A stretch of 64,000 nt of DNA, from NCBI GenBank assembly GCA_000092065.1, contig CP000582.1; one strand, given 5' to 3'. Position 1 is the first letter of the stretch; every line of letters begins with the position of its first letter. Made by a program: the position numbers and the translations under genes. Below the pieces are notes generated by a model. That model ran no database searches. It had not been told where the DNA came from and saw only the letters and a program-made list of their open reading frames with translations. The stretch is from Ostreococcus lucimarinus (taxonomy: Eukaryota). Of this stretch, positions 8,661 through 60,437 are shown piece by piece.

Positions 8661-8717
8661 CCCATTCTAGTACAAGTAGTACATCATACTGTTGCAACGC
8701 TACTTCTAACGCTATAG
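8661..8717. terminator. 57 bp AT-rich spacer between convergent stops (kinase + / AAA ATPase -)
   Basis: Stop-to-stop distance is 57 bp. Sharply AT-richer than the flanks. Confidence 0.45.
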
Positions 8718-11516
8718 CTAAGTTCGTCGAAACTTTTGATACATTTCCAACAGTTCGCGGTGCGGCGGAGGGCTCGGACGCACGCGCGTCATCGCCGTGG
8801 CGACGTGACGGGCAAAGACTCTGTCGGCGTCGATGCTCTCCTCCAGCGCCGCCAGCGCAGCCTCTCGGGATATCGCGGACAGGTCTGCACCCGTATAACC
8901 ATGAGTCGACATCGCGGCCAAGCTCAAATCGACGTCATCCGCAAGCGGCGTATTCTTAAATTGCACTCGCAGAATAGCCATTCGATCTTCGGACGACTGC
9001 GGCGGCGGCACGTAGAGCAGGCGATCGAATCGGCCGGGGCGCAACAGTGCGCCGTCGACTAAGTCGGGACGGTTAGTCGCCGCGACAACAGTCACGTTCG
9101 TCGTCGGGGATAAGCCATCCATCTCTCCAAGGAGCTGCGTGATGACGCGGTCCTGCACGGAGGGCGCGCCGCCTTGTTCGCCACCGCCGCGTGTGCCGGC
9201 CAATCCGTCTACCTCATCTATGAATATCACTGAAGGAGCGGATGTCCTGGCGCGGGAAAACACCGCGCGCACGGCTTTTTCAGAGTCTCCTACCCATTTT
9301 GAAAACAGCTCAGATCCCTTAATGGAGATGAAATTGCGTCCCGACGCGCTCGCCACCGCTCGCGCCAGCATTGTCTTGCTACACCCGGGAGGGCCGTATA
9401 GCAGAATACCTTTAGGCGGCGAAGCTCCGACGCGCTTCATTGCGTCTGGATGCTTCTCCGCCCACTCAACGGCTTCTTTCAAGCGATCCTTTACTTCGTC
9501 AAGACCTCCGACGTCGTCCCAAGCGACGTTTGGAACTTCGATGGCTACTTCGCGCAACGCGCTCGGCCGGACTTTCACGCGCGCGTGCTCGAAATCGTCC
9601 ATAATCACTCGCTCGTCACGAGATGATATGTCGATGTCGCCAATCGCACGTGCGACGCCGTCGACATCATCGCTGACGCCGGATGACCGCTTGGACGTTT
9701 TTTCGATCACGCGAGTCAGCGCGCGCATCGCCGCGTTTTGGCACAGCGACGCGATGTCGGCGCCGACGAACCCGTGCGCTCGTCGCGCGAGATCCACGAT
9801 GTATTCCTCAGTCAAATCGTGATTTAAACCACGAAGATGCGTTTGAAGAATTTCTAATCGATCGCTGGGCGTGGGCACGCCCACTTCGAGCTCGCGATCG
9901 AATCTTCCAGGGCGCCGAAGAGAGCGTTCGATTGCGTCCGGTCTATTCGTCGTCGCGATGACGACGACGCGATCGAGCTCGGGAACGTTCGATGATGTAC
10001 CGTCAAATATGGCGAGCATCGTGGCGACGATTCGCGACGACATCATATCGTCTCCCCCCGAGGACTGATTGCGCGCGGGAGCGATGGCGTCGAGTTCGTC
10101 GAGCAGCACCACGCTCGGGGCTGCTTTCACCGCGGCGAGAAAGACGCCGCGAAGCGCCTCTTCGCTCTCTCCCATGTGCGCGCTCACGAGCTCTGGACCG
10201 TTCACGACGAACAATTTTGCGTTCGATGCTTGCGCGGCGGCGCGCGCGAGACGCGTTTTCCCCGAACCCGGCGGTCCGTAAAGTAACACTCCCCGAGGCG
10301 GCTTCACTCCGCATCGCGTGAACACCTCTGGGCTTTCGAGTGGCAGCGTCACGAGCTCGCGCAGCGCCGCTTCGTGGTCAGCCACGCCACCGAGACTATC
10401 GAACGAGACATCTTGCGACATCGCCACTCGAGACGCGCGCTTCACCGCGGACGCGACAACGTCGTCGTCGTCGTCATCTGACTCGCTCGCTCCGTCGCTC
10501 GACGACGCGTCGTCGCCGCCTTCCTCGCGCGGGTACAAAACGATGCGCGTCCTCGCCGAAATCTCCACGCCCCTGTCACCGACATCGGGCTCGAGCCGAA
10601 TCACTTTGAACATCGCGCTCGTCCCGAGCAATGGCAAGCGCACGAGATTCCCGACCAACAGTCCGCGGCCGTCCAGCGCGCGTCTGGCGAGCGCTTCCAA
10701 AATACCGCGCTGCCGCGCCGCCGTTCGCCCACCGCCTCCCGCGCGTAGTCCACGCTCGAGCCACACCGCGGCCTCTCCGCCGACGTCCAACTCGAGCGCC
10801 CAAAGCTTCAAATGGGCCACGATTTCACCCTCCGCCTCGAACGCGTCAATCGGTCCAGCCGCGTCCCGTCGCGTCTGCGCGCTCAAAATCGTCCCGCCCG
10901 ACGGGCACCCCATCGATAACCAAACCTTCCGCGAAAGCGACACGCCGTCGTCCCCTAAACCCGCGGTCGGCCACGCGCGCGCCAACACCACGCGCGCGCC
11001 GCACGTCTCGTCTTCGTCGTCTTCATCGCGATCCGCGTCGACGTCCAAGTTTAACGCGCGCCGCGCCGCCGCCGCGTGCGTCGTCGCGCGCGTCGCCCTC
11101 TCATCACCATTCTCCACCATTTCCACCCGCGTCGCCGCCCGCGCGTCGCCCGCGTCGCTGGTTTTCGTTTTCCCTCTCCCTCGCTTCGGCGTCGCGAGCG
11201 TCGCGCCGTCGTTTCCGTCTTCTCGCCGCGCGTAGCTTCGCAACTCGACCCACGCGCCCGCGCGAGCGCCGACCGCCCGCGCGAGCTTCGCCGACATCAC
11301 GCAGTGCGCGTGCGCGCCCGCGCCCTGCGCCACGGGCTCGCGCGCGTCGACGCGCATCGCGCGAACGCCGTCGGGGAGGTAGACGACGCCATCGTCGCTC
11401 GTCAAAGACGCCGACGCGACCGCCGCCGGGACGCATTCGTCGGGAGAATCGTCGCGGTGTCGCCCGCGCGCGCGACGCGCGGGCGAACGCGCGCGTCTGG
11501 ACGCGCGCGACGCCAT
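8718..11516 (-). CDS. Tandem-AAA ATPase, AFG2/SPATA5(Drg1)-like (CDC48 family)
   Basis: Two complete AAA modules, each with Walker A (GPPGSGKT / GPPGCSKT) and Walker B (VVLLDELD / VIFIDEVD). The D2 segment GILLYGPPGCSKTMLARAVASASGRNFISIKGSELFSKWVGDSEKAVR and the C-terminal GADLSAISREAALAALEE closely resemble the SPATA5/AFG2 pattern as I recall it. Start set at the in-frame ATG 11516; upstream ORF residues are low-complexity. Confidence 0.65.
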   Translation of the reverse strand: MASRASRRARSPARRARGRHRDDSPDECVPAAVASASLTSDDGVVYLPDGVRAMRVDAREPVAQGAGAHAHCVMSAKLARAVGARAGAWVELRSYARREDGNDGATLATPKRGRGKTKTSDAGDARAATRVEMVENGDERATRATTHAAAARRALNLDVDADRDEDDEDETCGARVVLARAWPTAGLGDDGVSLSRKVWLSMGCPSGGTILSAQTRRDAAGPIDAFEAEGEIVAHLKLWALELDVGGEAAVWLERGLRAGGGGRTAARQRGILEALARRALDGRGLLVGNLVRLPLLGTSAMFKVIRLEPDVGDRGVEISARTRIVLYPREEGGDDASSSDGASESDDDDDDVVASAVKRASRVAMSQDVSFDSLGGVADHEAALRELVTLPLESPEVFTRCGVKPPRGVLLYGPPGSGKTRLARAAAQASNAKLFVVNGPELVSAHMGESEEALRGVFLAAVKAAPSVVLLDELDAIAPARNQSSGGDDMMSSRIVATMLAIFDGTSSNVPELDRVVVIATTNRPDAIERSLRRPGRFDRELEVGVPTPSDRLEILQTHLRGLNHDLTEEYIVDLARRAHGFVGADIASLCQNAAMRALTRVIEKTSKRSSGVSDDVDGVARAIGDIDISSRDERVIMDDFEHARVKVRPSALREVAIEVPNVAWDDVGGLDEVKDRLKEAVEWAEKHPDAMKRVGASPPKGILLYGPPGCSKTMLARAVASASGRNFISIKGSELFSKWVGDSEKAVRAVFSRARTSAPSVIFIDEVDGLAGTRGGGEQGGAPSVQDRVITQLLGEMDGLSPTTNVTVVAATNRPDLVDGALLRPGRFDRLLYVPPPQSSEDRMAILRVQFKNTPLADDVDLSLAAMSTHGYTGADLSAISREAALAALEESIDADRVFARHVATAMTRVRPSPPPHRELLEMYQKFRRT

Positions 11517-11681
11517 CGCGCACGTCGTGCGCGCGCGCGCGCGGTCGTTCGCGGGCGCGCGCGGCGGTGTGCAGCTCGAAATCGATGGACGATTGAGATA
11601 CAAAAAGAAAAGCGTCGTTACAACAAAATGCGCGTACGCGCGGCGCTTAAAGGCGCGACGATCGACGATGACGACGATCTA

Positions 11682-12539: not shown

Positions 12540-12601
12540 CGCGACGACGCGCGACGACCGCGCGGGCGCGACGATCGAGCGCGGCGAAATATTCACCGTC
12601 G

Positions 12602-12847
12602 ATGGAGACGGCGCGCGCGATGGAGACGGCTCGAGACGCGCGCGACGCGAAGCCGCGTGCGGTGCGACGCGCGTACGCGGTGGCGCACGGGTGGGAGCAC
12701 GCGAGCGCGCTGCGCGAGACGCAGCGCGCGGCGATCGGAGCGCTCGGGACGCGCGCGCGCGACGGTCGCGGACGCGCGCTCGGGACGCGGGCGGCGCGGG
12801 ACGGGACGGAGACGGCGACGCGCGAGGGAGGGGAAGGGGAGGCGGGA

Positions 12848-12880
<33 letters not shown>

Positions 12881-15040: not shown

Positions 15041-15105
15041 CGTCGCGACGCGCGCGCCAGATTAGAATCGCTCCGTGTAACACCCCACACTGCGCCGATC
15101 GCTCG

Positions 15106-21575: not shown

Positions 21576-21797
21576 CCGCGCGTTCGCGACGATCACCGAC
21601 GTCCCGTCCGATCCGCGCGCGCGCGATCGACGCCCGCGCACCACCCTCTCACTTCCCATCGCGTTCTTCGCTACGTCCGTGCGGATTGAATTACAAAAAG
21701 AAACCTACGAGCCTTCGCGCGTCGTCTCGCGCGTCCCGCTCGCGTCCCTTAGGGGTATCCTCGCCGTCCCGTCTCTCGTCGTCTCTTCGCTCTTCGC

Positions 21798-28272: not shown

Positions 28273-29307
28273 ATGGCGTCCGTCGCCCCGCGCGCGCGCG
28301 CGTCGACCGCCTCGCGCGCGCGCGCGCGCGTCGCGTCGTCCGCGTCGGCGTCGTCGACCGCGCGTCGGCGCGCGTCGCGCTCGAAACACGGCGACGCGCG
28401 CGGCGTCGACGTCAACCGACGCGCGGTCGCGGTCGCGCTCGCGGTCGCGCTCGCGACGCGCGCGGCGCCGCGCGCGCGCGCGACGGCGACGACGACGACG
28501 GATGAATTCAACGCGCTCGAGCGACGGGCGAAGCGGGCGTACTACGCGCGCGATTTGAAGCGGGCGCGCGAGGACTTGACAGCCATCATCGCGATGGAGC
28601 CCGAGACGCCCGAGTGGCGCGAGCGCCGCGCGCAGGTGCTCGTCGACATGAAATTGTTCGAAGAAGCCATCGCGGATTACGACGAGGCGGAGCGAATGTA
28701 TCGAGCGATGTACGACGACGCGACGACGACGTACAAGTCGCTCGGGATGCTGAGTAATCGCGCGTTGGCGTACGAAGGGTTGAGTCGCTGGGACGCGGCG
28801 ATCGCGGATTACTCGGAGGCGTTGAAGTACTCGTCGATGATGGGAGCGACGCCGCCGTACGTGCTGAATTCGCGTGGGAATTGTTATAACTCGATCGGGG
28901 AGTACGAGAAGGCGCTGGATGATTACTCGCGCGCGGCGGGCATTTTTCAGCAGTCTCGAAATCTTAGCGGAGCGATCTACGCGCAGAGCAACGCGGCGTT
29001 GATGCTCGCCGAACTCGGCCGAATCGACGAGGCGATAGAGGACATGGAAAAGGTTAAAAGACGAGCCGCCGGGAGCGTTGACATGCGCGCCGCGCTCGCG
29101 GCTCTCTATTGGTCGCGAGGGGAGGAGCAGCGCGCGGAGGATAATTGGAATTGGAGCTGCACGGCGATCAACAGTGGCCAAATGGTCGAAGGTGGTCCAG
29201 TGCTCGACGGCTGCGAGCTTTATCGCGATTACGATTGGCTCGGTCGCATTCGACGTTGGCCCCCGTCAATGGTGCAAAAGTTTAAAAGATTCATTGAGTT
29301 GAGTTGA
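28273..29307 (+). CDS. TPR-repeat protein, probably organelle-targeted
   Basis: ATG at 28273. Ala/Arg/Ser-rich N-terminus. Then at least 4 TPR-like units: AYYARDLKRAREDL, NRALAYEGLSRWDAAIADYSEALKY, NSRGNCYNSIGEYEKALDDYSRAAGI, AQSNAALMLAELGRIDEAIEDMEKV. Confidence 0.6.
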   Translation: MASVAPRARASTASRARARVASSASASSTARRRASRSKHGDARGVDVNRRAVAVALAVALATRAAPRARATATTTTDEFNALERRAKRAYYARDLKRAREDLTAIIAMEPETPEWRERRAQVLVDMKLFEEAIADYDEAERMYRAMYDDATTTYKSLGMLSNRALAYEGLSRWDAAIADYSEALKYSSMMGATPPYVLNSRGNCYNSIGEYEKALDDYSRAAGIFQQSRNLSGAIYAQSNAALMLAELGRIDEAIEDMEKVKRRAAGSVDMRAALAALYWSRGEEQRAEDNWNWSCTAINSGQMVEGGPVLDGCELYRDYDWLGRIRRWPPSMVQKFKRFIELS

Positions 29308-29341
29308 AAACAATGATTTAGTGATACAATAGTCGTTAGAT
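29308..29341. terminator. 34 bp AT-rich spacer between convergent stops (TPR + / dioxygenase-GT2 -)
   Basis: AAACAATGATTTAGTGATACAATAGTCGTTAGATCTAG. Confidence 0.45.
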
Positions 29342-34789: not shown

Positions 34790-34825
<36 letters not shown>

Positions 34826-36723: not shown

Positions 36724-36918
36724 TTTCGCCCGGCGCGCGATCTCGAAAGCTTGTCATCATCATGTATGTTTATACCGTCATGGCATCGCGCCCCGCGAGC
36801 ACCTCGCGCGAGCGCCGCGCGTGAACGTCGTGTCGAAGCGAAGCGAGAGCGCGGCGCGGCGCGTGATTCGAAAATGATTCTCCTCTCATTACCTTCGCTA
36901 GAGTTATGTCTACGACGC

Positions 36919-37740: not shown

Positions 37741-37933
37741 GTCGCGGTGCGGCGCGTCGTCGAAAGACGGCGCGCGCGCGCCGCGCGCCCGCGGTCTCGC
37801 GGCGGGCGCGCGGATGGACGGTGTCGTCGATGTTGGCGTTTTCGGGCGTACTCTACGTGCGTTACTGAATACGCATACGGAGCGGTCGGTCGCCGCGGGG
37901 CCCGGCCGTTACACCGACGCGCGCGGCGTCGCG

Positions 37934-39712: not shown

Positions 39713-39783
39713 CGTGTGAGTAGGTCATCTTAGTCAACTTTGTATTGGTTTGATTACACATTCTTTCTTTCACATTTGCTTTC
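39713..39783. terminator. 71 bp AT-rich spacer between convergent stops (AspH-like + / USP7 -)
   Basis: T-rich: TTTGTATTGGTTTGATTACACATTCTTTCTTTCACATTTGCTTTCTCAC. Confidence 0.45.
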
Positions 39784-42700
39784 TCACATGATTTTGATCG
39801 CTCGCTCAAATCCAGCCGGCTTCCCCTGACGGCTAGCCGGCCTTCGCGGACCTCTAACTTCGCGCTCGATCCCCAGCGTCGATTCGCAAAAGCCCTCTTT
39901 GGCGATGCGAACCAATTTACTCGATATAACCAACTCGTCGTCGTCCAAGATTTCATACCGCGGCGGGTGGCCGATGTAGAACTTCCATTTTGCGAAGTCC
40001 TCATCCGTCGCTTCGAGCCTCGTCTTGATCCGAGCCTTCACTTCCCCGAGCGTCTCACCTTCACACGTGCGAAGTAACATCGGTTCATCGTAGGCATAGA
40101 ACTGGTTAGGATTGGACAAGTCTTTGGAAATGTTGTACACACGCAAGAGTCTGTCTTCCTCTGACTCGTCATCGGGAACTTCCTCCGCACGAAGCGTCCA
40201 ATATTGGTCGTTGATATCTGCGATATCCTTTTCCTCCTCGAAAACTTTGTAGATTTGCGAGTAGAAAAGTTCAAGCAGACGTAATTTGCGACCGCCGACT
40301 CGAGTACCGAGCCTAGATCTGACCTCTTCGAGGACATCCTTCACCGCTGCGCTCTTCGACAGACGCAGTTGGAATTCTTCAACGAGCTTTGTGTTCAGTC
40401 CATGGAAGAAAACTTTTAGCGTCTTCAATTCCTGGAGTTCGGGCAGCGGCATGTCTAAGACTTCGTAATAGAGCACGTCGCTTTGCTGGTTTTCCAGCAT
40501 TTTTATCAAAGTATCCGCGCCTCTAAATTGGAAGCTTGCACTCTTTGGACCGTTCGTGTACACGTGATGCGCGGTGAAGCGCAATCGAAGAGGATCGTCC
40601 AAACCGATCGCCGAAGCCAAAACATCAGCGACTTGATCGTAACTCATCATTTTCGTCAACTCCAGAGTCACTTTGTCCACCTTAGGGGCCTCCAGCTCTC
40701 TGAAGTGAACGATTTGATGATTGTGTCTGAAGTCCGCATATTGAACCACGTTGGGGAACTTTAGTGAATCTTCCATGTCTTCAGTGATTTCTGGTTGAAT
40801 AAGCAAGATATCACCGTTACCGAGCTGCAACGTCTTGCTACCGTCATCGGGGTCGCTCAACGGATATGTTTTCACTTGTTTGTCCGATAATTGATCAATT
40901 TGAATCTTACTTTCGCGAACGAACGCAATTTCCTCAAACATGAGCGTTGACGCGGTACTGGCAAACCCTGCCATGGATTTGATCTTCGGCATGTAGGTAC
41001 TGAGCGTCTCCTCGGGACTCGCGTAAAGCGTGCCACAGTAACTCAACCGCGCCTCATGCGGATTGTAAAGCTTGACGTGCAACCAAATGTCTCTTTCTGG
41101 GTCACTGTTCGCGAACGCATCATCGTCAAGCTCTTCCAGGTAGAGTCTGAATTCGCCTGATGAAGCATGCTGTGAGTTAGGCACCGTGTATTTCAGCCGT
41201 GTTTTTTCAACCGTCCAGGTCGGTGGGGTATTTGCGTGGTCTGGAAGCGCGGTGGCTGGCCGAGATGTTTTGTTGCGTCGTGGCGAGTAAGTCCAGTACC
41301 GCTGCCTCTCAGCTGGTATTCCGAGCTTCTCGGAAACGAGCTCCCTAAACTTTGTAAATGTCGACTTTTTATGCAGTCGGAACCTTTGCGCGCTCTCAAA
41401 ATTGCCCAGATCAAAAAACTTCTCCGAAGCGATCTGCCGCTCTAAATCTTGCCTGGTCAAAACCTTGATGATGGTGTACAGATGCGCCTCCTTCTTTTCC
41501 TGCGCCTCTTTCTCCTTTGCCTTCTGCTCCTCAGCGAAGCGGGCCTGGAGGTATTCCGTGAGATGAGACTTATTGGCGACGCACATGATTTGATCCATGT
41601 CATCCTCTCGAATGTACACGAGCATGTAGGCGCTACTCACTTTTTGGAACCGCAAGTTCGGCGCCACGCGGACGTTTGTCGAGTCATCGTCTGCATCCAT
41701 ATCGCTATCGACCGCGGCTGCGCCGCCGCTTCCGTACTGTTCCACCACCGACTTTTCTGCGGTTTCTTTCGTCACGTGTTCGTCATCAAACTTGAACCAC
41801 TGCGCATCTTCCGCCTGCAAATTGGGCTTGACAAACGCGTAATAATGTCCACCATTTATCCCCCCGCTGTGTACTAAGACGCTATGAAGCTTATACTTGT
41901 TGCGAACACTCTTGTCGGACTCGGGAACGAGGTACTTACGATCACCCACGTCGAGATCGAGCTCTTCGGGGAACTCATATCTATCATGGATCTTCACCAT
42001 GGTGTCTCGTTGGTAATCGTACTCAAAACGCTTCAGCTGAATCTGCAACACGGGAGGAAAGTCGTGGAACAGCGTGCCTTTGCGAGCGTCTTGCAATCCG
42101 TGTCCCTCGGCGCGATACTTGTTCTCGCCATCAAGTTTTTCAATCTCAGTGTAACGATCAAAGGACGCATAAATATCTTTGCATCCCTTGACGTCTAACT
42201 GAAGATCGAGAAACTCCTCCTTGCGTTCGCTCTTGTAATCAACGTTGATGCACTCGATGAAGTTCGTCGTGTGCCCTTCGAAGAGCTTCTGAATCGTGCC
42301 CTCGACGCACGTTTGTTTCATGGCCTCTTCAAGCTTATCCTGAAGTACACGGTTGAGTTCCTGTACGTCGTGTTGCATGAAGGAATCGTAAGAGTCCCAT
42401 CCAAACGATCGCGTCAAATCCTCCGTGCTCACGTCGCCTTCTTTGGCGTACTGAAGACAGTAGAACACCGATTGTAACGCTAATGGCATCGATGTGTGCG
42501 CCTCTTCCGTTTCGTTCGTAGGCATGTGATAGACCGCGCGACGAAAGGAGGGAATGTGATAGAGCGTCTGCAAGAGCGAGTTCATGTAACACGTCGCCCC
42601 TTGATTCTTCAGACCGATCAGCCCTGTCTCTTTGCGCGAGTCGTATTCGCTATAAAACGCACTCTGCATCGGTCGGTCGACTTCGTGCTCCTCAATCGGC

Positions 42701-43413
42701 GTCACATGCACTCGGAAATTCACACAGCCTTCGGCGTCAACGTAGCCCTTTTCAAAAACGTCTTCGCGCGTGATGAACGACGCGAACCCCCAATCCGCTT
42801 CGCGTCTGTCGAACGTGTGCGACGTTTCCTTCGATTCTACCACCGACGCATCCGTCGGATGAAGCAGCTGCAATTCGAACTTCGCGTGCCTTCTCCACTC
42901 TCTACTCATGTCGTCCTCGATTCGGCGCGGCTTTGTCGCCCCCGTGTCCAAGAACAAGCTCACCTGCGCCGGCGTCTCCGATTTCGAGTTCAAATTACTC
43001 CCGAACGGATACATCGCCAACCGAAAGAGTGTATCTCCGCACTCAAACGTTTGACTCACCACCTTCGCGTCTCGTTTCTTCCATCGCGAGAACTCGGCGC
43101 GCCACGAGAACGTCGTCGGCTCCGCCGTCGAGAACGCCAACTCGCTATCTTCCGAACCGCTCGACATCGATCGATCGTCGTCTTCCGCGTCCGACGCGTT
43201 GCCGTCGTCGGCATCTAACGACCGCATCTCCACTGCTCGCGCGGGCGTCGTTCGTCCGGACGCGTCGTCGTCAGTCGTCGAGGCGGGTGCGGATTCCAGA
43301 TCGATTGCCGTCGCGATTCTCCGTCGGTTTCGTCGCGCGCGAAGCGCGCGCGCCCGATCGAGCGCCCGCGAGCGATGCGCACCGTCTTGCGAGGCGATAT
43401 CATCGCCTGACAT
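39784..43413 (-). CDS. USP7: Ubiquitin carboxyl-terminal hydrolase 7 (USP7/HAUSP; plant UBP12/13-type) with N-terminal MATH domain
   Basis: ATG at 43413. MATH: FSWRAEFSRWKKRDAKVVSQTFECGDTLFRLAMYPFG. Cys box: GLKNQGATCYMNSLLQTLYHIPSFRRAVY. His box: YKLHSVLVHSGGINGGHYYAFVKP. Long UBL-repeat C-terminal region. 1209 aa single exon. Confidence 0.9.
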   Translation of the reverse strand: MSGDDIASQDGAHRSRALDRARALRARRNRRRIATAIDLESAPASTTDDDASGRTTPARAVEMRSLDADDGNASDAEDDDRSMSSGSEDSELAFSTAEPTTFSWRAEFSRWKKRDAKVVSQTFECGDTLFRLAMYPFGSNLNSKSETPAQVSLFLDTGATKPRRIEDDMSREWRRHAKFELQLLHPTDASVVESKETSHTFDRREADWGFASFITREDVFEKGYVDAEGCVNFRVHVTPIEEHEVDRPMQSAFYSEYDSRKETGLIGLKNQGATCYMNSLLQTLYHIPSFRRAVYHMPTNETEEAHTSMPLALQSVFYCLQYAKEGDVSTEDLTRSFGWDSYDSFMQHDVQELNRVLQDKLEEAMKQTCVEGTIQKLFEGHTTNFIECINVDYKSERKEEFLDLQLDVKGCKDIYASFDRYTEIEKLDGENKYRAEGHGLQDARKGTLFHDFPPVLQIQLKRFEYDYQRDTMVKIHDRYEFPEELDLDVGDRKYLVPESDKSVRNKYKLHSVLVHSGGINGGHYYAFVKPNLQAEDAQWFKFDDEHVTKETAEKSVVEQYGSGGAAAVDSDMDADDDSTNVRVAPNLRFQKVSSAYMLVYIREDDMDQIMCVANKSHLTEYLQARFAEEQKAKEKEAQEKKEAHLYTIIKVLTRQDLERQIASEKFFDLGNFESAQRFRLHKKSTFTKFRELVSEKLGIPAERQRYWTYSPRRNKTSRPATALPDHANTPPTWTVEKTRLKYTVPNSQHASSGEFRLYLEELDDDAFANSDPERDIWLHVKLYNPHEARLSYCGTLYASPEETLSTYMPKIKSMAGFASTASTLMFEEIAFVRESKIQIDQLSDKQVKTYPLSDPDDGSKTLQLGNGDILLIQPEITEDMEDSLKFPNVVQYADFRHNHQIVHFRELEAPKVDKVTLELTKMMSYDQVADVLASAIGLDDPLRLRFTAHHVYTNGPKSASFQFRGADTLIKMLENQQSDVLYYEVLDMPLPELQELKTLKVFFHGLNTKLVEEFQLRLSKSAAVKDVLEEVRSRLGTRVGGRKLRLLELFYSQIYKVFEEEKDIADINDQYWTLRAEEVPDDESEEDRLLRVYNISKDLSNPNQFYAYDEPMLLRTCEGETLGEVKARIKTRLEATDEDFAKWKFYIGHPPRYEILDDDELVISSKLVRIAKEGFCESTLGIEREVRGPRRPASRQGKPAGFERAIKIM

Positions 43414-43621
43414 CAGCGCCGGTGAGGCGCGTCACCGTGTGGGGAGGTGGAGAGAGTGCGAGCGGAGATTAGACAGTTGCACTCGGGACGACGGTTGAAC
43501 CGACGGCGAGCGGCGAGCGGCGGATGTTTCATCATTCATTCATGCCTTTGCGACGACGCGTTTCGACGAGCGGTGAGCTAGATGCTAAAGTTGAGGAATC
43601 GTTCGGTGCGCGCGGAGGGCG

Positions 43622-44182
43622 TCATCGCGCGCGCGCGGCGGCGCCGACGCGAGATTTGACGTGCTGCTGCTGCTGCGCTCGAGCCGTCGGGCGGGTGTCC
43701 TCGGGAACGAACGGGTCGCCGATGGCGCCGTGCACGGATCTTCGGAACGCGGGAAACACGACTGGGTCGCGAATTTTGCTCGCGATGAATTTTTCGAGCT
43801 CTGACTTTTCGGGTGAGGACTTTTCGGCGTCGCGAGCGGCTTTGGCGTACGAATCAGCCTTGCGTTTTTCTCGCTTCTGCTGCGAAAGCAGCGGCCCGAG
43901 ATTTCTACCGCCGCCGCCGCCGCCGCCGCCGGTCGAGGAAGTTCCCGACGATTTTCCCGTTCCCGTCCGTTCGCTCAAGTTGGCCGACGCCTTCCCGGCG
44001 TACGTCGCCGAGCTCGTCGCCGATTTCTCGGGCGATTTCTCCGCCGACGATATCGGACGCGGCACTTTCTGTGACTCCTGCGTCGCACCCTCGGTTTTCT
44101 TCCCCTGCTCCTTCCCGAAGCTCTGCGTCTCGTTCTCACTCGCTCGCTTCGCCCCGTTCCCAGCCTTTCGCTCTCGTTTTCG
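43622..44182 (-). CDS. K/E/S-rich low-complexity ORF in frame with the upstream hypothetical gene (possible downstream exon or readthrough extension)
   Basis: No ATG. The ORF-track start is GTG at 44065. Open frame back to the TAG at 44186. Composition is Lys/Glu/Ser-rich, unlike the Arg/Ala artefact frames. A (GGC)n tract encodes poly-Gly. The tail is FIASKIRDPVVFPAFRRSVHGAIGDPFVPEDTRP. Confidence 0.3.
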   Translation of the reverse strand, partial: RKRERKAGNGAKRASENETQSFGKEQGKKTEGATQESQKVPRPISSAEKSPEKSATSSATYAGKASANLSERTGTGKSSGTSSTGGGGGGGGRNLGPLLSQQKREKRKADSYAKAARDAEKSSPEKSELEKFIASKIRDPVVFPAFRRSVHGAIGDPFVPEDTRPTARAQQQQHVKSRVGAAARAR

Positions 44183-44185
44183 CTC

Positions 44186-44581
44186 CTACTTCGACAATCT
44201 ACGATGCGCCGAGAAGAAGGCCGTCTTGGGCGAGTGACGAGAGAGCACCTGCCCAAAATTCGTCCCATCGTCCACGCTCAGCCGCTTCCGCTCGCCTCGA
44301 TCGCCGTCATCGTACACCAAACACACGTGGATCTTCTCCTTCAGCGCGTTGTCCCCCGTCTTGGCCAGTTCTTTGGAGAACGCCGCGTTCGATTTATGCG
44401 CCGCCGCCGCGCGCGCCACGTCTCGCAGAAATTGGTTCAACCGCTGTCCGTTGTGCACTCCCACGCGTCCGACGCGCGCGAGCCCACCGGAACCGGCGCG
44501 CGATTTATCCCCACCGCCCTCGCCGCCGTAGAACGATCGCTCGTCCACGCGCAGGTCGAACGGCGTCTTGTACTTTTCCAT
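44186..44581 (-). CDS. Hypothetical protein (131 aa as written; may continue into the downstream K/E-rich ORF)
   Basis: ATG at 44581: MEKYKTPFDLRVDERSFYGGEGGGDK...KIHVCLVYDDGDRGERKRLSVDDGTNFGQVLSRHSPK. Non-GC-artefact composition (Lys, Tyr, Phe, Asn codons). Terminated by TAG at 44186..44188, which is in the same frame as ORF 43622..44065. Confidence 0.4.
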   Translation of the reverse strand: MEKYKTPFDLRVDERSFYGGEGGGDKSRAGSGGLARVGRVGVHNGQRLNQFLRDVARAAAAHKSNAAFSKELAKTGDNALKEKIHVCLVYDDGDRGERKRLSVDDGTNFGQVLSRHSPKTAFFSAHRRLSK

Positions 44582-44634
44582 GTCTCGGCGCGCGGCGTTA
44601 GTTGGCGCGCGCGCGGTCCGCAGACCGCGGCGCG

Positions 44635-45447
44635 ATGTCGCGCGCGCCGTCGATCGCCGCGCGGCGGTGCGCGAGCGTCGCGTCGACCGTCCCGACGCGC
44701 GCGCGACGGACGAATCGCGCGCGCGGCGCGGCGGCGTCGAGGAATGCGGACGCCGAGACGAACGCCGAGACGGACGACCGTCGCGACTCTCGACGCGCGT
44801 TTCTCGCGCGGGCGTGCGCGGGGACGGCGTGCGCGCGCGCGTCGTCGTCTCAAGCGTCGGAAGCGCGCGCGCCGAGCGGATACGACGCGCCGACGGTGGC
44901 GCCGAGCGGGTCGACGACGCGCGCGAACGCGTTCGAGTCGTCGCGCGCCGGCGGCGAATCCATCTCGCCGTACGCGTATCGCCTCCGATGGCCGAGCGGA
45001 TGGTGCGCGCTGCGCGACCTCGCGAGCGCGCGAACCGTGGGCGTCGACGCGTCGTTTAAGGATCCGCTGGACGAGGCGAGCACGCTCGCGGTGTTCGTGA
45101 CGCGCGGCGTTCGCGAACGCGACGTCGCGTCGCGATACGGAACGCTCGATGAAGACGCGAGACGACGCGCGGACGCCGCGCCGAATCAAAAAACCATAGG
45201 CAAGAGGACCGTGCGCGTGTCCGTGCCGCGCGGCGACGGCGCCGGTCGCGTCGTCGTCGAGGCGCACGAGATCGAAACCGAAGTCGGCGGCGGCACCGCC
45301 GGCAGGTTCGGCGCCGCCGTCGAGCTCATCCGCGTCTGGGTAGCGGACGGCTCCGAGTGGTGCGTTCGCGCCACGGCGAGTAAATCCGCGTGGCCGCGCG
45401 TTCGCGGCGAGCTTCGTCGCGCCGTCGATAGCTTTGAGTTCGCGTGA
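44635..45447 (+). CDS. PsbP-domain protein (PsbP-like/PPD), thylakoid lumen, twin-arginine signal
   Basis: The ORF-track start is TTG; first ATG is at 44635. Transit-like N-terminus, then the TAT motif DSRRAFLARACAG. PsbP-fold blocks: YAYRLRWPSGW, GVDASFKDPLDEASTLAVFV, KTIGKRTVRVSV, ELIRVWVADGSEWCVRATASKSAW. Confidence 0.7.
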   Translation: MSRAPSIAARRCASVASTVPTRARRTNRARGAAASRNADAETNAETDDRRDSRRAFLARACAGTACARASSSQASEARAPSGYDAPTVAPSGSTTRANAFESSRAGGESISPYAYRLRWPSGWCALRDLASARTVGVDASFKDPLDEASTLAVFVTRGVRERDVASRYGTLDEDARRRADAAPNQKTIGKRTVRVSVPRGDGAGRVVVEAHEIETEVGGGTAGRFGAAVELIRVWVADGSEWCVRATASKSAWPRVRGELRRAVDSFEFA

Positions 45448-45677
45448 CCGTCGCGCGGCGTTAGACGTTCGTAGTCGAGAGTCGCGTGACTTTTTGGGGT
45501 GGGTTGAATGACTTGGGCACGCGATTCAACGACGGGTAGGGTCGTTTGCGTTTCTTAGTTTTTATAGTAAAAGTGGTGACTTGGGCGTCGGTAGATCCAA
45601 ATCCGCGCGCGCGCGGAGACGCCGCGGAGACGCCGCGGGGACGCTCGAATTCCGCAATCATCACACCCCGACGCGCG

Positions 45678-46238
45678 ATGCCGACGTCGGCGACGCCCTA
45701 CCCCGACCCTCCCGCGTTCTTCACGCTTTACGGCGCGCCCGACGTCGTCCCTCCGGCGCCGCCGACGCCTCCCACGAACGCGGCGTACGCATCTTTCGGC
45801 GCCAATCATCACACCGCGCCCTGGCACGACCCCGACCACGGGTACGCCGCGTCCGGTGGGTTCGTCTACCCGATCTGCGTCGACGAGCGCGGGAAAACGG
45901 ACGCGCGAGAGGAGATGTGCGCGCTGACGCGACACGCGACGGCGAGGTTCGTGGAGGCGATGGAGAGGTGCGTGGACGCGCCGACGCGCGCGGAGGAGGC
46001 GACGGGGGCGCTGCACGCGCTGTTCAACAACGCGCATAAATTGATCAACGAAACGATACGACCGAGTCAAGCGATGACGGATTTTGAGTATCAGATAGAA
46101 CGGATGATTGAGGAGAAACGAACGAGCGTGGAGGCGCTGGAACGGGCGCTGGAACGGGCGAAAGCGGTCAAGGCGAACGCGGCCGAGGCGAGCGAGGATT
46201 TGGGAGTCGAGGCGCTGAAGAGAGCGCTGGAGGGGTAG
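45678..46238 (+). CDS. Small Pro-rich N-terminus / helical protein, possibly Mediator subunit MED7-like
   Basis: ATG at 45678: MPTSATPYPDPPAFFTLYGAPDVVPPAPPTPP resembles the MED7 N-terminal PP..Y..F..Y motif. A helical region follows (ALHALFNNAHKLINETIRPSQAMTDFEYQIERMIEEKR). Identity is tentative. Confidence 0.35.
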   Translation: MPTSATPYPDPPAFFTLYGAPDVVPPAPPTPPTNAAYASFGANHHTAPWHDPDHGYAASGGFVYPICVDERGKTDAREEMCALTRHATARFVEAMERCVDAPTRAEEATGALHALFNNAHKLINETIRPSQAMTDFEYQIERMIEEKRTSVEALERALERAKAVKANAAEASEDLGVEALKRALEG

Positions 46239-46303
46239 ATGCATAGATAGATAGAATTACAACGCAATGCGCGAGTGATGATGATACATCGTGTCGGTGA
46301 CGA
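46239..46303. terminator. 65 bp AT-rich spacer between convergent stops (MED7-like + / PIG-V -)
   Basis: ATGCATAGATAGATAGAATTACAACGCAATG... Confidence 0.4.
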
Positions 46304-47611
46304 TCACGTCCACGGGTAGAAATTGGCGAAGAGCGCGGCGCCGACGAGGGCGTAGGAGACGTGGTACGTCGCGATGAAGCGTCTCCACGCTTTGCTGTGG
46401 CGACCGAGGTGGGCCAGACCCCAATACATCGCCGGCGAGGTGCTCAAAAATCGCGTGGCGACTTGCACGTGCATGTACGTCGCCGCTATGACGGTCATCA
46501 CCCCGAGTTTGACGAAGTACGCGCCGACGAAGAAGCGCTGCTCCTCCTTGACGAAGACGCGCGCGTCTCGCGACCAAGCAAAGCGCTTCGTGAGGTAAAA
46601 CCCGAGCGCGATGGCGGGCGCGCCGAGCAAGACGTTCCCGAGGTTTCGCGCGCGATAGGACGACATGAAGCCTAGATTCCAGTAATGCCTCTGAATGAAA
46701 GAATACATCCCGCTCGGAACGTATCCGTACAGGTTGCGCCACGACTTTGGGCGACAATACGGTCGCTCCGCGCCGTCGAATACGGCGCCGTTGCAATATC
46801 GCATGTCCCCGAACTGAGCGAACGCGTAGTGCGGCGCGACGGTCAGCGCGATCGCGATCATCGCTCGCTTCAAGTGTCGCGCCGCGCGACGATGGCGCGT
46901 CTCGTCGTTCGCGTCGCGCAGTAAACGAAACATCTCTCGCCCGGCGTGTCCGAGCAACAAGACGACGCACAGCACCCCGTTCGAGCGGAACATCGTCGCG
47001 ACGCCGAACAACACGCCGCTGTGCAGCACCTTATTTTCTTGCAACAGCGACCCCGCGGCGAACTGCGCGTACGCGAATCCCGCCTCGGCGTACGCGCTTC
47101 CGTAAAACACATTCGCCGGATTCATCGCGTACAGCGTCGCCGCGGCTTCCGCCAGCGCCTCATCCCTCAGCAACTGCGTCGACAGCGCGTACATCGCCTC
47201 CACGCTCCGCGCGAACGCGTACGCGTTAATCGCCACCGCCGCCGCGCCCGCCGCGCACTCCTCCCGCGCGTCGTCCCGCGTCGTCCTCGCCCCCGCCAGC
47301 CTCGCCGCGCGTCCCACCGCGGCCGTCGTCGCCCGCGTCGCCATCGCGAGCCCCGGATAAAACGCGTGCTGATGCTCGAACTCGTACCCTCGCACCGCGA
47401 TCCCGACGTGATGTTCGCCGTCCCACGACGTCGCCGCGCGCACGCCCTCGCACGCGACGTCCGCGAGTCCGCCTCGCCGCGTCGCGTCGCGTCGCGTCGT
47501 CGACGCGCGCGCGAGCCCTCGCGAGGCGTCGTACGCCGGCATCGCGAGCCGCGTCGCGAGCACGACGCACAGCGCGACCGCGCGCGTCCGCGCGCCGCGT
47601 CGAAACATCAT
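46304..47611 (-). CDS. PIGV: GPI mannosyltransferase 2 (PIG-V/GPI18 family)
   Basis: ATG ATG at 47611 precedes TM1 (RAVALCVVLATRLAM). N-terminal block WDGEHHVGIAVRGYEFEHQHAFYPGLA matches the PIG-V signature (WDa.hf..IA..GYe.E...AFfP). Multiple TM spans. C-terminal YMHVQVATRF. The ORF-track 5' extension is an Arg-rich artefact antisense to the next gene. Confidence 0.6.
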   Translation of the reverse strand: MMFRRGARTRAVALCVVLATRLAMPAYDASRGLARASTTRRDATRRGGLADVACEGVRAATSWDGEHHVGIAVRGYEFEHQHAFYPGLAMATRATTAAVGRAARLAGARTTRDDAREECAAGAAAVAINAYAFARSVEAMYALSTQLLRDEALAEAAATLYAMNPANVFYGSAYAEAGFAYAQFAAGSLLQENKVLHSGVLFGVATMFRSNGVLCVVLLLGHAGREMFRLLRDANDETRHRRAARHLKRAMIAIALTVAPHYAFAQFGDMRYCNGAVFDGAERPYCRPKSWRNLYGYVPSGMYSFIQRHYWNLGFMSSYRARNLGNVLLGAPAIALGFYLTKRFAWSRDARVFVKEEQRFFVGAYFVKLGVMTVIAATYMHVQVATRFLSTSPAMYWGLAHLGRHSKAWRRFIATYHVSYALVGAALFANFYPWT

Positions 47612-47776
47612 CGCCCGCGTCGTCGTCGTCGTCGCGCCGCCGTCGCGCCGTCGCGAGGCGTCGCGCAGGAACGTCCCGAACGCCGCGCGCGTCGCGCGCC
47701 CGTCGGTCGCGCCGTCGCCGTCGCGCGGCATCGCGGCGCGCCCGCGCGTCACTCTGCGGCGACGCATCGACCGACG

Positions 47777-49480
47777 ATGTCTCGACGCGCCGACGCGCGC
47801 GCCGACGCCGCGCTCGGCGCGTACGCGTACGTCGACCTCGCGGGCGCGACGCAGGGGCCGTTCGCCGCGCGCGCGCTCGCGCGGTGGCACGAGGACGGGT
47901 TTCTCGAGCGCGCGCTCGCGCTGCGGCGCGACGGCGACGGACGCGAGACGACGGTCGGCGACGTCGTCGACGCGCTGCGCGCGCGCGATCGCGCGCGCGA
48001 CGAAGAGGACGACGACGCCGACGACGCGCGCGCGCGCGAGGGCGAGGGCGCGAGCGACGGCGTCGCCGATGACGATCGCGACGACGGCGGCGCGCGCGGC
48101 GACGACGCGAGGGCGAGCGCGTTGGACGATCGACTGTCGCGGTTGCTCGCGATCGGCGGCGGCGAGCTCCCGCGCGCGCGCGCGGTGACGCCGGACGTCG
48201 CGGAGGAGGGCGGGTGCGAGGACGCGGCGGCGCGGGATGCGATGGGATCGGAGACGGCGGGCGACGACGCGCGCGCGAGGGCGTACAGACGGCCGAGAGG
48301 GTGGCGGGACATCCTGCGCGCGACGCGGGAGAGGGTGCGGCGAGGACGGGCGGCGATGGGGGAACCGCTGGGCGAGGAGGACGAGACGGGGACGTGGAGC
48401 GCGGCGGTGAACGCGCGGTTGCGGGATCCGCGGCCGGACGGGCGCGCGCGGGGGACGGAACCGGACGAGGAGGGCGCGCTGCCGGAGGAACCCGCGCCGA
48501 TCGATCTTCGCGAGCCGTTTTGGGTGATTGAAGATCGCGCGCGAATGGACGGTGAGCTCGACGCCGAGCGTTTGAACGCCGCGGTGGCGGAGCAGTTGCG
48601 AAATACGTCAAAGCCGCCGGCGAGCGGCGACGCGAGGAGCGACGATTCAGACGTGAGTTGGAGCGGGAAGCCGGGAGGCTTGGAACGACAGGCTGCGCGC
48701 GCGGCGGAGCGCGCGGCGCTCGAAGCGGCGCAGCGCAACGCGCGCGAGGCTGCGGCGAGGACGGAGCGGGCGGAAGACGCCGCGGCGGTCGAAGAAGACG
48801 AAGCCGCGCGCGCGCGAGCGGCGACGGAGGAAGCGCGACGAAGACGACACGAAATGGAGCAATACTTTGCCGCAAATCCTTACGCCGGCGAGTGGTGGTT
48901 GACGGAACAAGAAAACGACGGAAAGTTTACGCTCGGACCGTTTGCGTACCACGAGCTGCTGGAAAGGCTTCCTCACGTCGCGGTGGCGCATCGCAGGGAC
49001 GACGACGCGTGGCGCGTGGTGGGTCCGTACGCGGCGCGCGAACGCGTCGAGGGTTACGGACGCAACATGGACGGCGCGGTGCTTTCGTTCGACCGTGATG
49101 AGGCTGATGCGGACGCGGCGGCGTCGCGCGATATGGAGACGGAAGCGTGGTTCGACGTCGTCACGTCTGTCATTGACGTAGAGGGCGAAGTACAAAATGC
49201 GCTCTCGCGAAACGTCGGCGACGAAAAGGATGTAAACGCGTGGTTCGATAGAGAAATGTCGAAAGTGAAACTTCCACCGGGAATCGCACCGATGAAATCG
49301 GTGAAGTCGACGCAACGAAAGCGTCGTCGCGGCTTTGAAACGCGCGTCGTCGCCAACGAAACTCAAAACCTTGCGTCGGCTCGCGTACTCGGCGATCTGT
49401 ACCAAGCGGTGACGAGGAATCGAAAACGACTTTTCGCGGCGATCATCGAGCCCGTGTTGGACGAGTGGGAACGCGAATAG
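47777..49480 (+). CDS. GYF-domain protein (two GYF-like modules, acidic/Arg-rich linker)
   Basis: ATG at 47777. YVDLAGATQGPFAARALARWHEDGFLERALALR is a GYF core (W.Y.d..g..qGPf....W...GyF). A second GYF-like unit is GEWWLTEQENDGKFTLGPFAYHELLERL. Asp/Glu/Arg-rich linker. The upstream ORF-track extension is antisense to PIG-V. Confidence 0.55.
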   Translation: MSRRADARADAALGAYAYVDLAGATQGPFAARALARWHEDGFLERALALRRDGDGRETTVGDVVDALRARDRARDEEDDDADDARAREGEGASDGVADDDRDDGGARGDDARASALDDRLSRLLAIGGGELPRARAVTPDVAEEGGCEDAAARDAMGSETAGDDARARAYRRPRGWRDILRATRERVRRGRAAMGEPLGEEDETGTWSAAVNARLRDPRPDGRARGTEPDEEGALPEEPAPIDLREPFWVIEDRARMDGELDAERLNAAVAEQLRNTSKPPASGDARSDDSDVSWSGKPGGLERQAARAAERAALEAAQRNAREAAARTERAEDAAAVEEDEAARARAATEEARRRRHEMEQYFAANPYAGEWWLTEQENDGKFTLGPFAYHELLERLPHVAVAHRRDDDAWRVVGPYAARERVEGYGRNMDGAVLSFDRDEADADAAASRDMETEAWFDVVTSVIDVEGEVQNALSRNVGDEKDVNAWFDREMSKVKLPPGIAPMKSVKSTQRKRRRGFETRVVANETQNLASARVLGDLYQAVTRNRKRLFAAIIEPVLDEWERE

Positions 49481-49533
49481 CTCATCTAGTATACTGTAGA
49501 TTTCAACTCAATGCTCTAAATGTCTGCTATAAG
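49481..49533. terminator. 53 bp AT-rich spacer between convergent stops (GYF + / PNPase -)
   Basis: CTCATCTAGTATACTGTAGATTTCAACTCAATGCTCTAAATGTCTGCTATAAG. Confidence 0.45.
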
Positions 49534-53142: not shown

Positions 53143-53242
53143 GCCGCGTTTCGCCGTAGAAGCTCCTTCTTCTCTCCTTCTCTTGTAGTTGACTTCATTT
53201 TCCCGCGCTCGGTCCTCGTCGTTCGCGCGCGCGCGCGCGAGC

Positions 53243-54379: not shown

Positions 54380-54494
54380 GCTCGGTCGTGTCGTCGCGAT
54401 TCCCTCGACGCGCGCGCGACCGCCTGATTTTTCAACTGTAACATCTGACCCTTCGTTTCCTCTTTCCCCTCACGCGCTCCCGCACACGCCGACG

Positions 54495-57530: not shown

Positions 57531-57593
57531 TCGGTGCAACTTGTACGGCTTTTTACAAATTTTTCACTTTACTGTAATTTATTACAACACTCT
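57531..57593. terminator. 63 bp AT-rich spacer between convergent stops (Patched + / methyltransferase -)
   Basis: TCGGTGCAACTTGTACGGCTTTTTACAAATTTTTCACTTTACTGTAATTTATTACAACACTC. Confidence 0.45.
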
Positions 57594-58529: not shown

Positions 58530-58737
58530 GGGTGGGGAGTCGCGCGCGCGAGGCGGCGACTGCCGTCGCGCGCGTCTTCGGTAGCCGCGTCGTCGTCGTC
58601 GTTGGGTCACAAACGTCTACGTGGGCGCGCGTCGCCAGTTCTTCTAATTAATCGTTGATCACGTACACACAATACACTCTCACGCCTCCCGCCTATCGTT
58701 GTCGAATAAAGAATTGTATTCTTCTCGCCGAGCGCGT

Positions 58738-59459: not shown

Positions 59460-59651
59460 GGCGCGTCGATGTGTGCGGCGTCGCGCGCGCGGCGACGTCG
59501 CCGCGCCGGCGCGCGCGAAAAGAGCCTTAAATATGAGATTTGATGGCGCGACGGCGGTGTCGTTCGTACGTTCGTGTGTTTATCACTGTTTACACATACA
59601 CAGATTGCGCGGTCGGTCGCGCCCGTCGGTCGCGCGCGCGCGCGCGTCCGC

Positions 59652-60368
59652 ATGGCGCCGCGCGCGCTCGCCGCGCGCGCGCGTCCGGCGCCGATTCGCG
59701 CGCGCGCTCGAAGAGAACGTCGTCGCGCTCTCGCGTCGTCGTCGAGCGCGAGCGACGAGCTGTGCGCGCGCGTGGACGAGCTGAATGCATTCGTCGGCTG
59801 CGAGACGCGCGCGGTGACGGTGCGCGAGCGCGCGCTCGGCCGCGGCGCGTTCGGCGTCGTCCTGCGCGCGTCTCGCGACGGCGGCGTCGGCGCGCTCGAC
59901 GCGCTGGTGACGCGGCGGAGCGAGACGAAGGACGTGTGGCCGGGCGGGACGGACGCGGCGACGAGCGGCGTGGTGCGCGCGACGCGAGGGCGCGACGGCG
60001 AGGCGGCGGCGGCGGAGACGTACGAGGAAACGATGCGACGGGAGCTGGAGGAAGAGCTCGGGAGCGATGCGGCGAGAGGCGCGAGCGTGCGGGAGTTGTT
60101 CACGTTTCCGTACGAGGACGCGTACATGCGAGTGTTCGGCGCGTGCTTTGAAATCGTGCTCAGGGACGACGCCGAAATCGAATTCGCGGACGGCGAAGTG
60201 GCGGCGGCGAGATTCGTGAGTCTGGATGAGTTGGCGAGGAGCCTGAGAGAGGGGCGGGAGAATTTCACGCCGATCGGGAAGTACGTGCTGGAGTCGTACT
60301 TGGCCTTCGTCGAGACGGGCGCGCGGCCGCCCTCGGCGTGGGCCGAGCGGCGCGTCGAACCTTCGTGA
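59652..60368 (+). CDS. Nudix hydrolase
   Basis: ATG at 59652. Nudix box with insertion, ending in the REx2EE core: PGGTDAATSGVVRATRGRDGEAAAAETYEETMRRELEEELG. Transit-like N-terminus. Confidence 0.65.
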   Translation: MAPRALAARARPAPIRARARRERRRALASSSSASDELCARVDELNAFVGCETRAVTVRERALGRGAFGVVLRASRDGGVGALDALVTRRSETKDVWPGGTDAATSGVVRATRGRDGEAAAAETYEETMRRELEEELGSDAARGASVRELFTFPYEDAYMRVFGACFEIVLRDDAEIEFADGEVAAARFVSLDELARSLREGRENFTPIGKYVLESYLAFVETGARPPSAWAERRVEPS

Positions 60369-60437
60369 GAGACGAGTGCTTTGCATTTAAAAATAATCGC
60401 GCTAGTGTAGAGTGTAGTATAATTCGTTTGGATGTAG
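60369..60437. terminator. 69 bp AT-rich spacer between convergent stops (Nudix + / PTGES2-like -)
   Basis: GCATTTAAAAATAATCGCGCTAGTGTAGAGTGTAGTATAATTCGTTTGGATG. Confidence 0.45.

Follow-up and report, generated by a model that had tools for sequence, protein, structure and literature searches.

How do two convergent genes end when only a few tens of base pairs separate their stop codons? The question is raised by a 64,000-nucleotide stretch of contig CP000582.1 of Ostreococcus lucimarinus (GenBank assembly GCA_000092065.1), hereafter the window. A first-pass annotation of its letters had listed seven tail-to-tail gene pairs with short AT-rich spacers, and had attributed these either to tiny 3' untranslated regions (UTRs) or to antisense overlap of transcripts around a shared bidirectional polyadenylation (poly(A)) element. 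Based on the geometry, composition and motif content of the spacers, we consider it likely that they are compressed, shared poly(A) signal islets associated with short overlapping 3' UTRs.

Convergent gene pairs and their spacers

The window has a GC content of 62.1%, staying near 0.62 throughout, and carries long open reading frames (ORFs), mostly without introns, that are densely packed on both strands. According to Pfam these are ordinary eukaryotic genes, examples being DNA polymerase delta, USP7, MED7, PIG-V, PNPase, CDC37, an LHC protein, RPS14, Rpn10 and an NPC1-like protein. All seven listed pairs are found at the coordinates claimed for them, with a stop codon on each strand, and their spacers are indeed both short and AT-rich relative to the window (Table 1, which also gives the Pfam identities of the flanking ORFs). 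The 200 bp flanking these spacers have a GC content of 0.54-0.66, and each spacer ranks in the lowest 0.1-2.5% of GC among windows of the same length. Of the 16 lowest-GC 50-bp windows of the stretch 6 lie on the seven spacers, the most AT-rich 50 bp of all being held by the NPC1-like/methyltransferase spacer. The accompanying statement, by which AT-rich patches are almost confined to these spacers, is wrong, as 173 segments contain a 31-bp window at GC<=0.39, most of them within coding sequence (e.g. USP7 and DNA polymerase delta) or 3' of the stops of tandem genes. Furthermore, the list of pairs, while real in all seven entries, is incomplete: the window has ten pairs of protein-coding genes that are adjacent tail to tail on opposite strands, the additional ones having their stops at 62770/62845 (short spacer), 21575/21798 and 36723/36919 (both long).

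The gene map used for the spacer statistics comprises 37 genes, with 10 convergent, 10 divergent and 16 tandem spacers. Convergent spacers have a median length of 67 bp, with a GC content of 0.26-0.46 in the 8 short ones, as against medians of 155 bp for the divergent (range 62-912 bp; pooled GC 0.71) and 185 bp for the tandem spacers (pooled GC 0.64); against the other 26 spacers together, both their shorter length (Mann-Whitney p=7e-4) and their higher AT content (p=2e-5) stand out.

AT islets and polyadenylation signal motifs at 3' ends

The AT-richness is a property of 3' ends rather than of non-coding DNA generally. An AT islet (31 bp, GC<=0.42) lies no more than 120 nt past the stop in 31 of the 37 genes, whatever the orientation of the next gene, whereas upstream of the start only 12 of 37 have one (Wilcoxon p=6e-6). 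Among random windows within coding sequence, about 35% reach the same level. Over the first 60 nt 3' of the stops of convergent genes the GC content is 0.34-0.45, and it is back to ~0.6 farther out. The divergent, promoter-side spacers reach a GC content of 0.66-0.85, above that of coding sequence, and are rich in CGCG-type words (e.g. 3256-3422, 47768-47899 and 61473-61615).

In O. lucimarinus, UGUAA has been described as the near-upstream poly(A) element of 30% of sites, and the one-base variants UUUAA, UGAAA, UGUAU, UGUUA, UGUGA and UGCAA account for a further 29%; the element lies 10-35 nt upstream of the cleavage site, with a U peak followed by an A peak on a GC-rich background (PMC6413133). 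The premise of the first-pass annotation that the DNA comes from a eukaryote with polyadenylated mRNAs is right. The sense 3' flanks of the window, 3,037 nt in all, contain 13 copies of TGTAA (4.3 per kb), where composition predicts 2.2. The density of this pentamer is 0.31 per kb in other intergenic DNA, 0.38 in antisense coding and 0.05 in sense coding sequence, and the enrichment in sense 3' flanks is ~14-fold. When each of the eight short spacers is shuffled, TGTA/TACA emerges as their top 4-mer (16 observed vs 4.96 expected, z=5), and every one of the eight has TGTA on one or both strands. Ten of the 16 genes flanking the short spacers have a sense TGTA inside the spacer, and most of the remainder have one of the listed one-base variants. 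Modules of the form TGTA(A)-N4-12-(T)TACA, in which the two motifs stand face to face, number three in the ~0.5 kb of short convergent spacer and seven in 56 kb of coding sequence, with none in other intergenic DNA. These contrasts in composition, like the geometry of the pairs and the enrichment and orientation of the motif, are direct observations.

We also considered whether selection against cryptic signals explains why coding sequence has 3 copies of TGTAA in sense and 20 in antisense. We rejected this, because coding constraint accounts for the low count (shuffles of synonymous codons give 5.2 +/- 1.9).

Proposed shared islets and overlapping 3' UTRs

In light of these features we propose that the AT islets would be zones of cleavage and polyadenylation signals, each consisting of a UGUAA-type near-upstream element and the surrounding U/A-rich sequence. 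Where genes converge in this compact genome, two such zones may have been squeezed into one common islet of 34-74 bp, from which each partner would draw its 3' UTR and poly(A) signal on a strand of its own. Every mRNA would then have a 3' UTR of ~40-80 nt, ending at or past the signal or the stop codon of the partner, and the mature mRNAs of the two partners would be complementary across some tens of nucleotides. That one islet serves both partners, as the first-pass annotation suggested, agrees with the evidence.

The positions of the motifs are consistent with such an arrangement. The exact TGTAA lies at +26 past the USP7 stop in a spacer of 71 bp, at +32 of 74 for PC4 and at +43 of 65 for PIG-V, while the 63-bp spacer of the NPC1-like/methyltransferase pair has it at +43 for the former and at +8 and +37 for the latter; in tandem genes it is found at +4 to +60, with a median of +44. 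With the published 10-35 nt added, cleavage is predicted at ~+53 to +78 for the NPC1-like and PIG-V genes, at or past the stop of the partner. The predicted UTRs sum to more than the spacer for the Asp-hydroxylase/USP7 and NPC1/methyltransferase pairs, and the room predicted to be left is at most 12 nt for MED7 and at most 32 nt for the alpha-amylase. The UTRs are therefore expected to overlap, because signals 8-43 nt past the stop and cleavage 10-35 nt farther on sum to more than the 34-74 bp of the spacers; in the extreme case of the TPR/GT2 pair, 34 bp are too few, at the same published spacing, for two signals plus two cleavage sites. The motifs actually used, the cleavage positions and hence the overlap at these loci are what we infer from the DNA sequence. 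As to the two options of the first-pass annotation, short UTRs (~40-80 nt) and overlap, the latter deduced from geometry, both appear to apply, and the choice between them was a false dichotomy.

If two 3' regions were not shared, an additive estimate from the medians of divergent (155 bp) and tandem (185 bp) spacers would put them at ~215 bp together. Both long convergent spacers, at 195 and 222 bp, fit this figure, and the eight short ones amount to about one third of it, so that short and long convergent spacers look like the shared and unshared states, respectively.

Several points weigh against the shared-islet proposal. Only 2 of the 8 short spacers have TGTA on each strand, arranged in face-to-face TGTA...TACA modules, and only 5 of the 16 short-pair genes have exact TGTAA. 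Six of the 16 genes (kinase, TPR, MED7, PNPase, GST and amylase) lack a sense TGTA in the spacer, and their signals are guessed from weaker variants or unassigned, MED7 and the amylase having neither UGUAA nor a listed variant in sense within the short spacer. The distance from signal to cleavage site (10-35 nt) is a value from the literature (PMC6413133), and the sample is small, with 37 genes and 10 convergent pairs in the window and 16 pairs in the relatives. Finally, two metagenome scans yielded only genomic contigs and none with a poly(A) tail: a JGI scan for a USP7 3' UTR anchor followed by N3-33 and A8 had no match, and a scan with an anchor from the PC4 stop region returned nine contigs, all of them genomic and without tails. 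Logan contigs carrying a MED7 variant likewise had arbitrary, GC-rich ends without tails.

A stronger version, which we regard as a long shot, is that the face-to-face TGTA(A)-N4-12-(T)TACA modules (39741-39758, 57542-57557 and 57573-57586, and one in the PIG-V/MED7 spacer of a relative) might be true bidirectional poly(A) elements. Each mRNA would then be cleaved atop the complement of the signal of its partner, giving obligatory sense/antisense 3' duplexes of 20-60 nt that might serve the cell in reciprocal control, for instance over the day/night cycle. Canonical RNA interference is reportedly absent from Ostreococcus, a loss on which the matches of a literature search contained no statement, and pervasive duplexes may be tolerated for that reason.

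Alternative explanations

If the UTRs were instead tiny and non-overlapping (<~17-35 nt), each transcript being cleaved in its own half of the spacer, the islet would consist of two abutting minimal signals. Some signals do lie very near the stop (TGTAA at +8 in the methyltransferase and at +4 in an MFS gene, TGTAT at +14 in GT2), and the scans for poly(A)-tailed contigs gave no direct evidence of overlap at these loci; even so, we find this account rather unlikely, as exact TGTAA is mostly in the distal half of the spacer (+43/65, +43/63, +32/74 and +37/63), the tandem median of +44 implies UTRs of 50-80 nt as the norm, the 34-bp spacer is too small at the spacing of PMC6413133, and overlapping 3' ends occur among expressed sequence tags (ESTs) of the same species (PMC2367439). 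The islets might also carry no signal at all and simply be non-coding DNA that has relaxed towards AT, coding sequence being what drives the GC content of the genome; the difference in spacer sequence between species would agree with that. We judge this account very improbable, because other non-coding DNA is GC-rich, at or above the coding level (divergent 0.71, tandem 0.64), TGTA is enriched 3-fold beyond the composition of the spacers themselves, and TGTAA is strand-specific relative to the upstream gene.

It has further to be asked whether the overlap is a selected regulatory device, the partners forming natural antisense pairs that regulate each other through transcriptional interference or mRNA duplexes. 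Four pairs have kept their convergent layout and short spacers across Ostreococcus species at ~65-70% protein identity, reciprocal regulation has been suggested for convergent overlapping pairs of Micromonas (PMC4815162), and it has been demonstrated for convergent yeast pairs with short spacers (PMC6993858 and PMC3900390). Against this, it is the whole gene order that is conserved at these loci and not the convergent pairs specifically, the functions of the partners have no obvious relation (MED7/PIG-V, NUDIX/GST, kinase/AAA), and the spacer sequences diverge between species, with only composition and motif type persisting; the device is accordingly an unlikely explanation, and nothing supports a special regulatory antisense role of the overlaps. 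That the pattern is an artefact of annotation (mis-set stops, unseen 3' introns, shadow ORFs), or that the spacers are bidirectional terminators of the bacterial hairpin type, is barely credible. An ORF implied by the first-pass annotation (36751-37518, +) is in fact a shadow ORF, and the stop at 63109 differs from the natural gene end, but all seven listed pairs are unaffected, which also meets the caveat, raised along with the original list, that mis-set stops would remove the pattern. Such stops are argued against because four pairs recur with short spacers in related genomes, orthologues are similar in length and stops, and Pfam domains extend near the C-terminus in PIG-V (to the last residue), USP7 (USP7_C2 to 1183/1209) and PNPase (S1 domain to 988/1021). 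Hairpin terminators were rejected since the genes are eukaryotic and all eight short spacers fold no better than their shuffles (z-scores -0.95 to +2.24), without stable secondary structure; a structured non-coding RNA gene inside the spacers was likewise rejected, the tRNA search and the Rfam search (gathering score) of the whole window returning 0 tRNAs and 0 matches.

Conservation in related Ostreococcus genomes

The comparison covered L012 (the O. tauri cluster), L013, L014 and L015, which are genomes of related Ostreococcus in which gene order is conserved. Across their 16 convergent pairs the spacers have a median of 88 bp and a GC content of 0.47, against 170 bp and 0.67 for divergent and 138 bp and 0.58 for tandem spacers (p=0.01 for length, p=3e-6 for GC). 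The TPR/GT2 pair of L012 has a 55-bp spacer with GC 0.33 and TGTAA, and its GYF/PNPase pair one of 41 bp with GC 0.32, again with TGTAA. The Asp-hydroxylase/USP7 spacers measure 43, 108 and 86 bp in L013-L015, and those of MED7/PIG-V 74 bp in L012 and 90 bp in L013, the latter with TGTAA on both strands and a face-to-face module analogous to those of the window.

The convergent pair at 36723/36919 arises once RPS14, a cytosolic ribosomal protein S14e encoded at 36919-37338 (-) (Pfam Ribosomal_S11, E=7.6e-37), replaces the + ORF 36751-37518, which we rejected as a gene because it is a shadow of RPS14 on the - strand. Spacers of 126-216 bp separate this pair in the four related genomes. More generally, convergent pairs with a ribosomal protein (S14e, L10) have long spacers of 126-224 bp in every species, the islets of their neighbours measuring 38-108 bp, and it could be that highly expressed genes avoid sharing a 3' region. 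The first ~60 nt past the RPS14 stop are conserved in 4 of 5 Ostreococcus species (CGTAG..CACC..CTAGC..TGTGAGAGGAG), while spacers other than that of RPS14 give no alignment between species; the stretch might regulate the ribosomal protein mRNA as an element of its 3' UTR.

Table 1. Convergent spacers of the window, with their signals, and RPS14-related features in the window and in related genomes (+n, position past the stop of the gene named)
Feature	Position	Length, GC	Signals and remarks
Protein kinase (+, stop 8660) / AAA ATPase (-, stop 8718)	8661..8717	57 bp, 0.40	Palindromic TTGCAA 8692-8697, giving the published variant UGCAA on both strands; TGTA on - strand (TACA at 8671, 8680)
TPR protein (+) / GT2/PhyH protein (-)	29308..29341	34 bp, 0.26	AT-rich zone also takes in the final ~30 nt of TPR coding sequence (29277-29326, GC 0.24); GT2: TGTAT at +14, TTTAA at +56, within the TPR coding sequence
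Asp/Asn hydroxylase-like protein (+) / USP7 (-)	39713..39783	71 bp, 0.35	Face-to-face module TGTATTGGTTTGATTACA 39741-39758; USP7 TGTAA (TTACA 39754-39758); + gene TGTAT at 39741
MED7 (+) / PIG-V mannosyltransferase (-)	46239..46303	65 bp, 0.43	PIG-V TGTAA (TTACA 46257-46261, +43 from PIG-V stop); MED7 without listed signal
GYF-domain protein (+) / PNPase (-)	49481..49533	53 bp, 0.34	TGTAG at 49495 (+); PNPase TGAAA at +29
NPC1/Patched-like protein (+) / methyltransferase (-)	57531..57593	63 bp, 0.32	Near-palindrome TGTAATTTATTACA 57573-57586; second module 57542-57557; TGTAA (+) 57573-57577; TGTAA (-) 57553-57557, 57582-57586
NUDIX (+) / GST/glutaredoxin-like protein (-)	60369..60437	69 bp, 0.38	NUDIX: TTTAA at +18, TGTAG x3 (60406, 60413, 60433); GST: TTTAA at +47, TGCAA at +53
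PC4 coactivator (+, stop 62770) / alpha-amylase (-, natural stop 62845)	62771..62844	74 bp, 0.46	Eighth short spacer; PC4 TGTAA 62802-62806
4-alpha-glucanotransferase (+) / ferredoxin-thioredoxin reductase variable chain (FTRV) (-)	21576..21797	222 bp, 0.65	One central AT islet 21672-21717; FTRV TGTAA (TTACA 21691-21695, +103)
Conserved unknown 403-aa protein (+) / RPS14, ribosomal protein S14e/S11 (-)	36724..36918	195 bp, 0.59	An AT islet for each gene (36739-36787 and 36861-36907), set apart from each other
Long spacers of ribosomal-protein pairs	Window 36724-36918; L012 14424-14635; L013 17815-17995; L014 8157-8380, 16537-16662; L015 13534-13749
Conserved RPS14 3' stretch	Window 36860-36918 (-); L012 14424-14490; L013 17815-17875; L015 13534-13600

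Other loci and sequence samples

The PC4/alpha-amylase pair was hidden because of an in-frame TAA at 63109-63111 (a - strand codon) in the alpha-amylase ORF. The codon is CAA (Gln) in 9 of 9 same-species environmental contigs (L016-L024), from which we take the natural stop to be at 62845, and the 79 codons past the TAA encode an Alpha-amyl_C2 domain (ORF 62845-63084). In the reference strain the TAA is either a true premature stop, costing the protein its C-terminal domain, or an erroneous base; a 3' intron was rejected, as the difference is a single C-to-T change.

Non-convergent spacers can be equally short, because of which tandem neighbours would also overlap, the 3' UTR of one with the promoter or 5' UTR of the next. 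From the COG3 stop to the start codon of the MFS gene there are 65 bp (15041-15105), with the TGTAA of COG3 at 15076-15080, 25 nt before the MFS ATG, and the divergent start codons of ferritin and COG3 are 62 bp apart (12540-12601). The largest AT patch outside convergent spacers is a 110-bp stretch at 1187-1296 (GC 0.39), between a gene for a GATA-type zinc finger (-; window 1-1000), which runs past the left end of the window, and the stop of a glycosyltransferase gene at 1396.

The MED7 and CDC37 proteins encoded in the window are exact matches of XP_001416123.1 and XP_001416126.1, respectively, of O. lucimarinus CCE9901, and its USP7 is closest to proteins from marine metagenomes and from Ostreococcus tauri, with 69% identity. 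Contigs of O. lucimarinus itself from marine metagenomes match the window at 99.6-99.75% identity across 23.6 kb. As a test of constraint, within-species polymorphism comes to 3 variable sites in 384 bp of convergent spacer (0.78%), the divergent spacers having 1.77% and the tandem ones 1.28%; with so few sites the comparison lacks statistical power. A Logan contig of SRR1179203, a run accession that turned up in no paper, equals window 37627-48039 at 100% identity across 10,413 bp. It breaks at both ends (37627 and 48039) in (CGCG)n-like, low-complexity and very GC-rich sequence, in agreement with the reported drop-out of extreme GC in Illumina assemblies of Ostreococcus, and we rejected it as a fused transcript: it is genomic and uninformative on that point.

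Implications and comparison with known systems

For annotation and transcriptomics, unstranded RNA-seq or EST assemblies of Ostreococcus fuse convergent partners, and UTR models must permit overlap. An engineered insertion at the 3' end of one gene is likely to disturb the poly(A) signal of its neighbour. The islets also bear on how far the 3'-end signal region of a eukaryote can be compressed, namely to two signals in ~15-45 bp, sometimes palindromic.

The closest precedents come from the same species and genus. In 148 of 1,647 clusters of O. lucimarinus ESTs, over-clustering is put down to 3' ends that overlap from opposite strands (Lanier et al. 2008, PMC2367439), and the RNA-seq assembly of O. 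tauri concatenates transcripts owing to overlapping UTRs (Blanc-Mathieu et al. 2014, PMC4378021). This is the same phenomenon, in which opposite-strand units merge across tiny intergenic regions, although both studies treat the overlap as a nuisance of clustering or assembly and say nothing on the AT islet or on how the signals are arranged in it, whereas the present account concerns the anatomy of the sequence alone. The green-algal UGUAA signal known from Chlamydomonas and O. lucimarinus (PMC6413133; Wodniok et al. 2007, PMC1868727) involves the same pentamer with the same variants, in sense, soon past the stop and within a U/A-rich peak on a GC-rich background, and exact TGTAA in 13 of 37 genes compares with the 30% published for O. 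lucimarinus (PMC6413133). That earlier analysis treats all genes together; in the window, by contrast, two genes appear to have their signals in a common islet, at times arranged as a near-palindrome (Table 1). The sister genus Micromonas, also of the Mamiellales, has "convergent overlapping pairs" with overlapping 3' UTRs (van Baren et al. 2016, PMC4815162). Those pairs are concentrated in a low-GC region and have 5' intergenic regions of ~900-1,250 nt, whereas the window has a normal GC content of 0.62 and 5' spacers with a median of 155 bp.

Farther afield, convergent genes of yeast (PMC3900390; PMC6993858; bioRxiv 10.1101/2022.11.02.514956) are the best-studied analogue and resemble those of the window in a compact genome, shared AT-rich 3' regions and overlap tied to short distance; they differ in having UA-rich efficiency and positioning elements instead of UGUAA, longer spacers and UTRs, and functions that have been tested. 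In microsporidia and nucleomorphs (Williams et al. 2005, PMC1182411, cited in PMC2367439), shrinking intergenic DNA similarly forces transcripts to overlap, but signals are often lost or moved into neighbours and multi-gene transcripts result, whereas here a dedicated signal islet is kept. Overlap, signal and compaction having all been published for O. lucimarinus, the spacers are an already known consequence of an extremely compact genome and not a new element; to that picture the window adds, descriptively, the islets at nearly all 3' ends as against GC-rich promoters, the seemingly shared and unshared states of convergent spacers, and the near-palindromic double signals of some islets.

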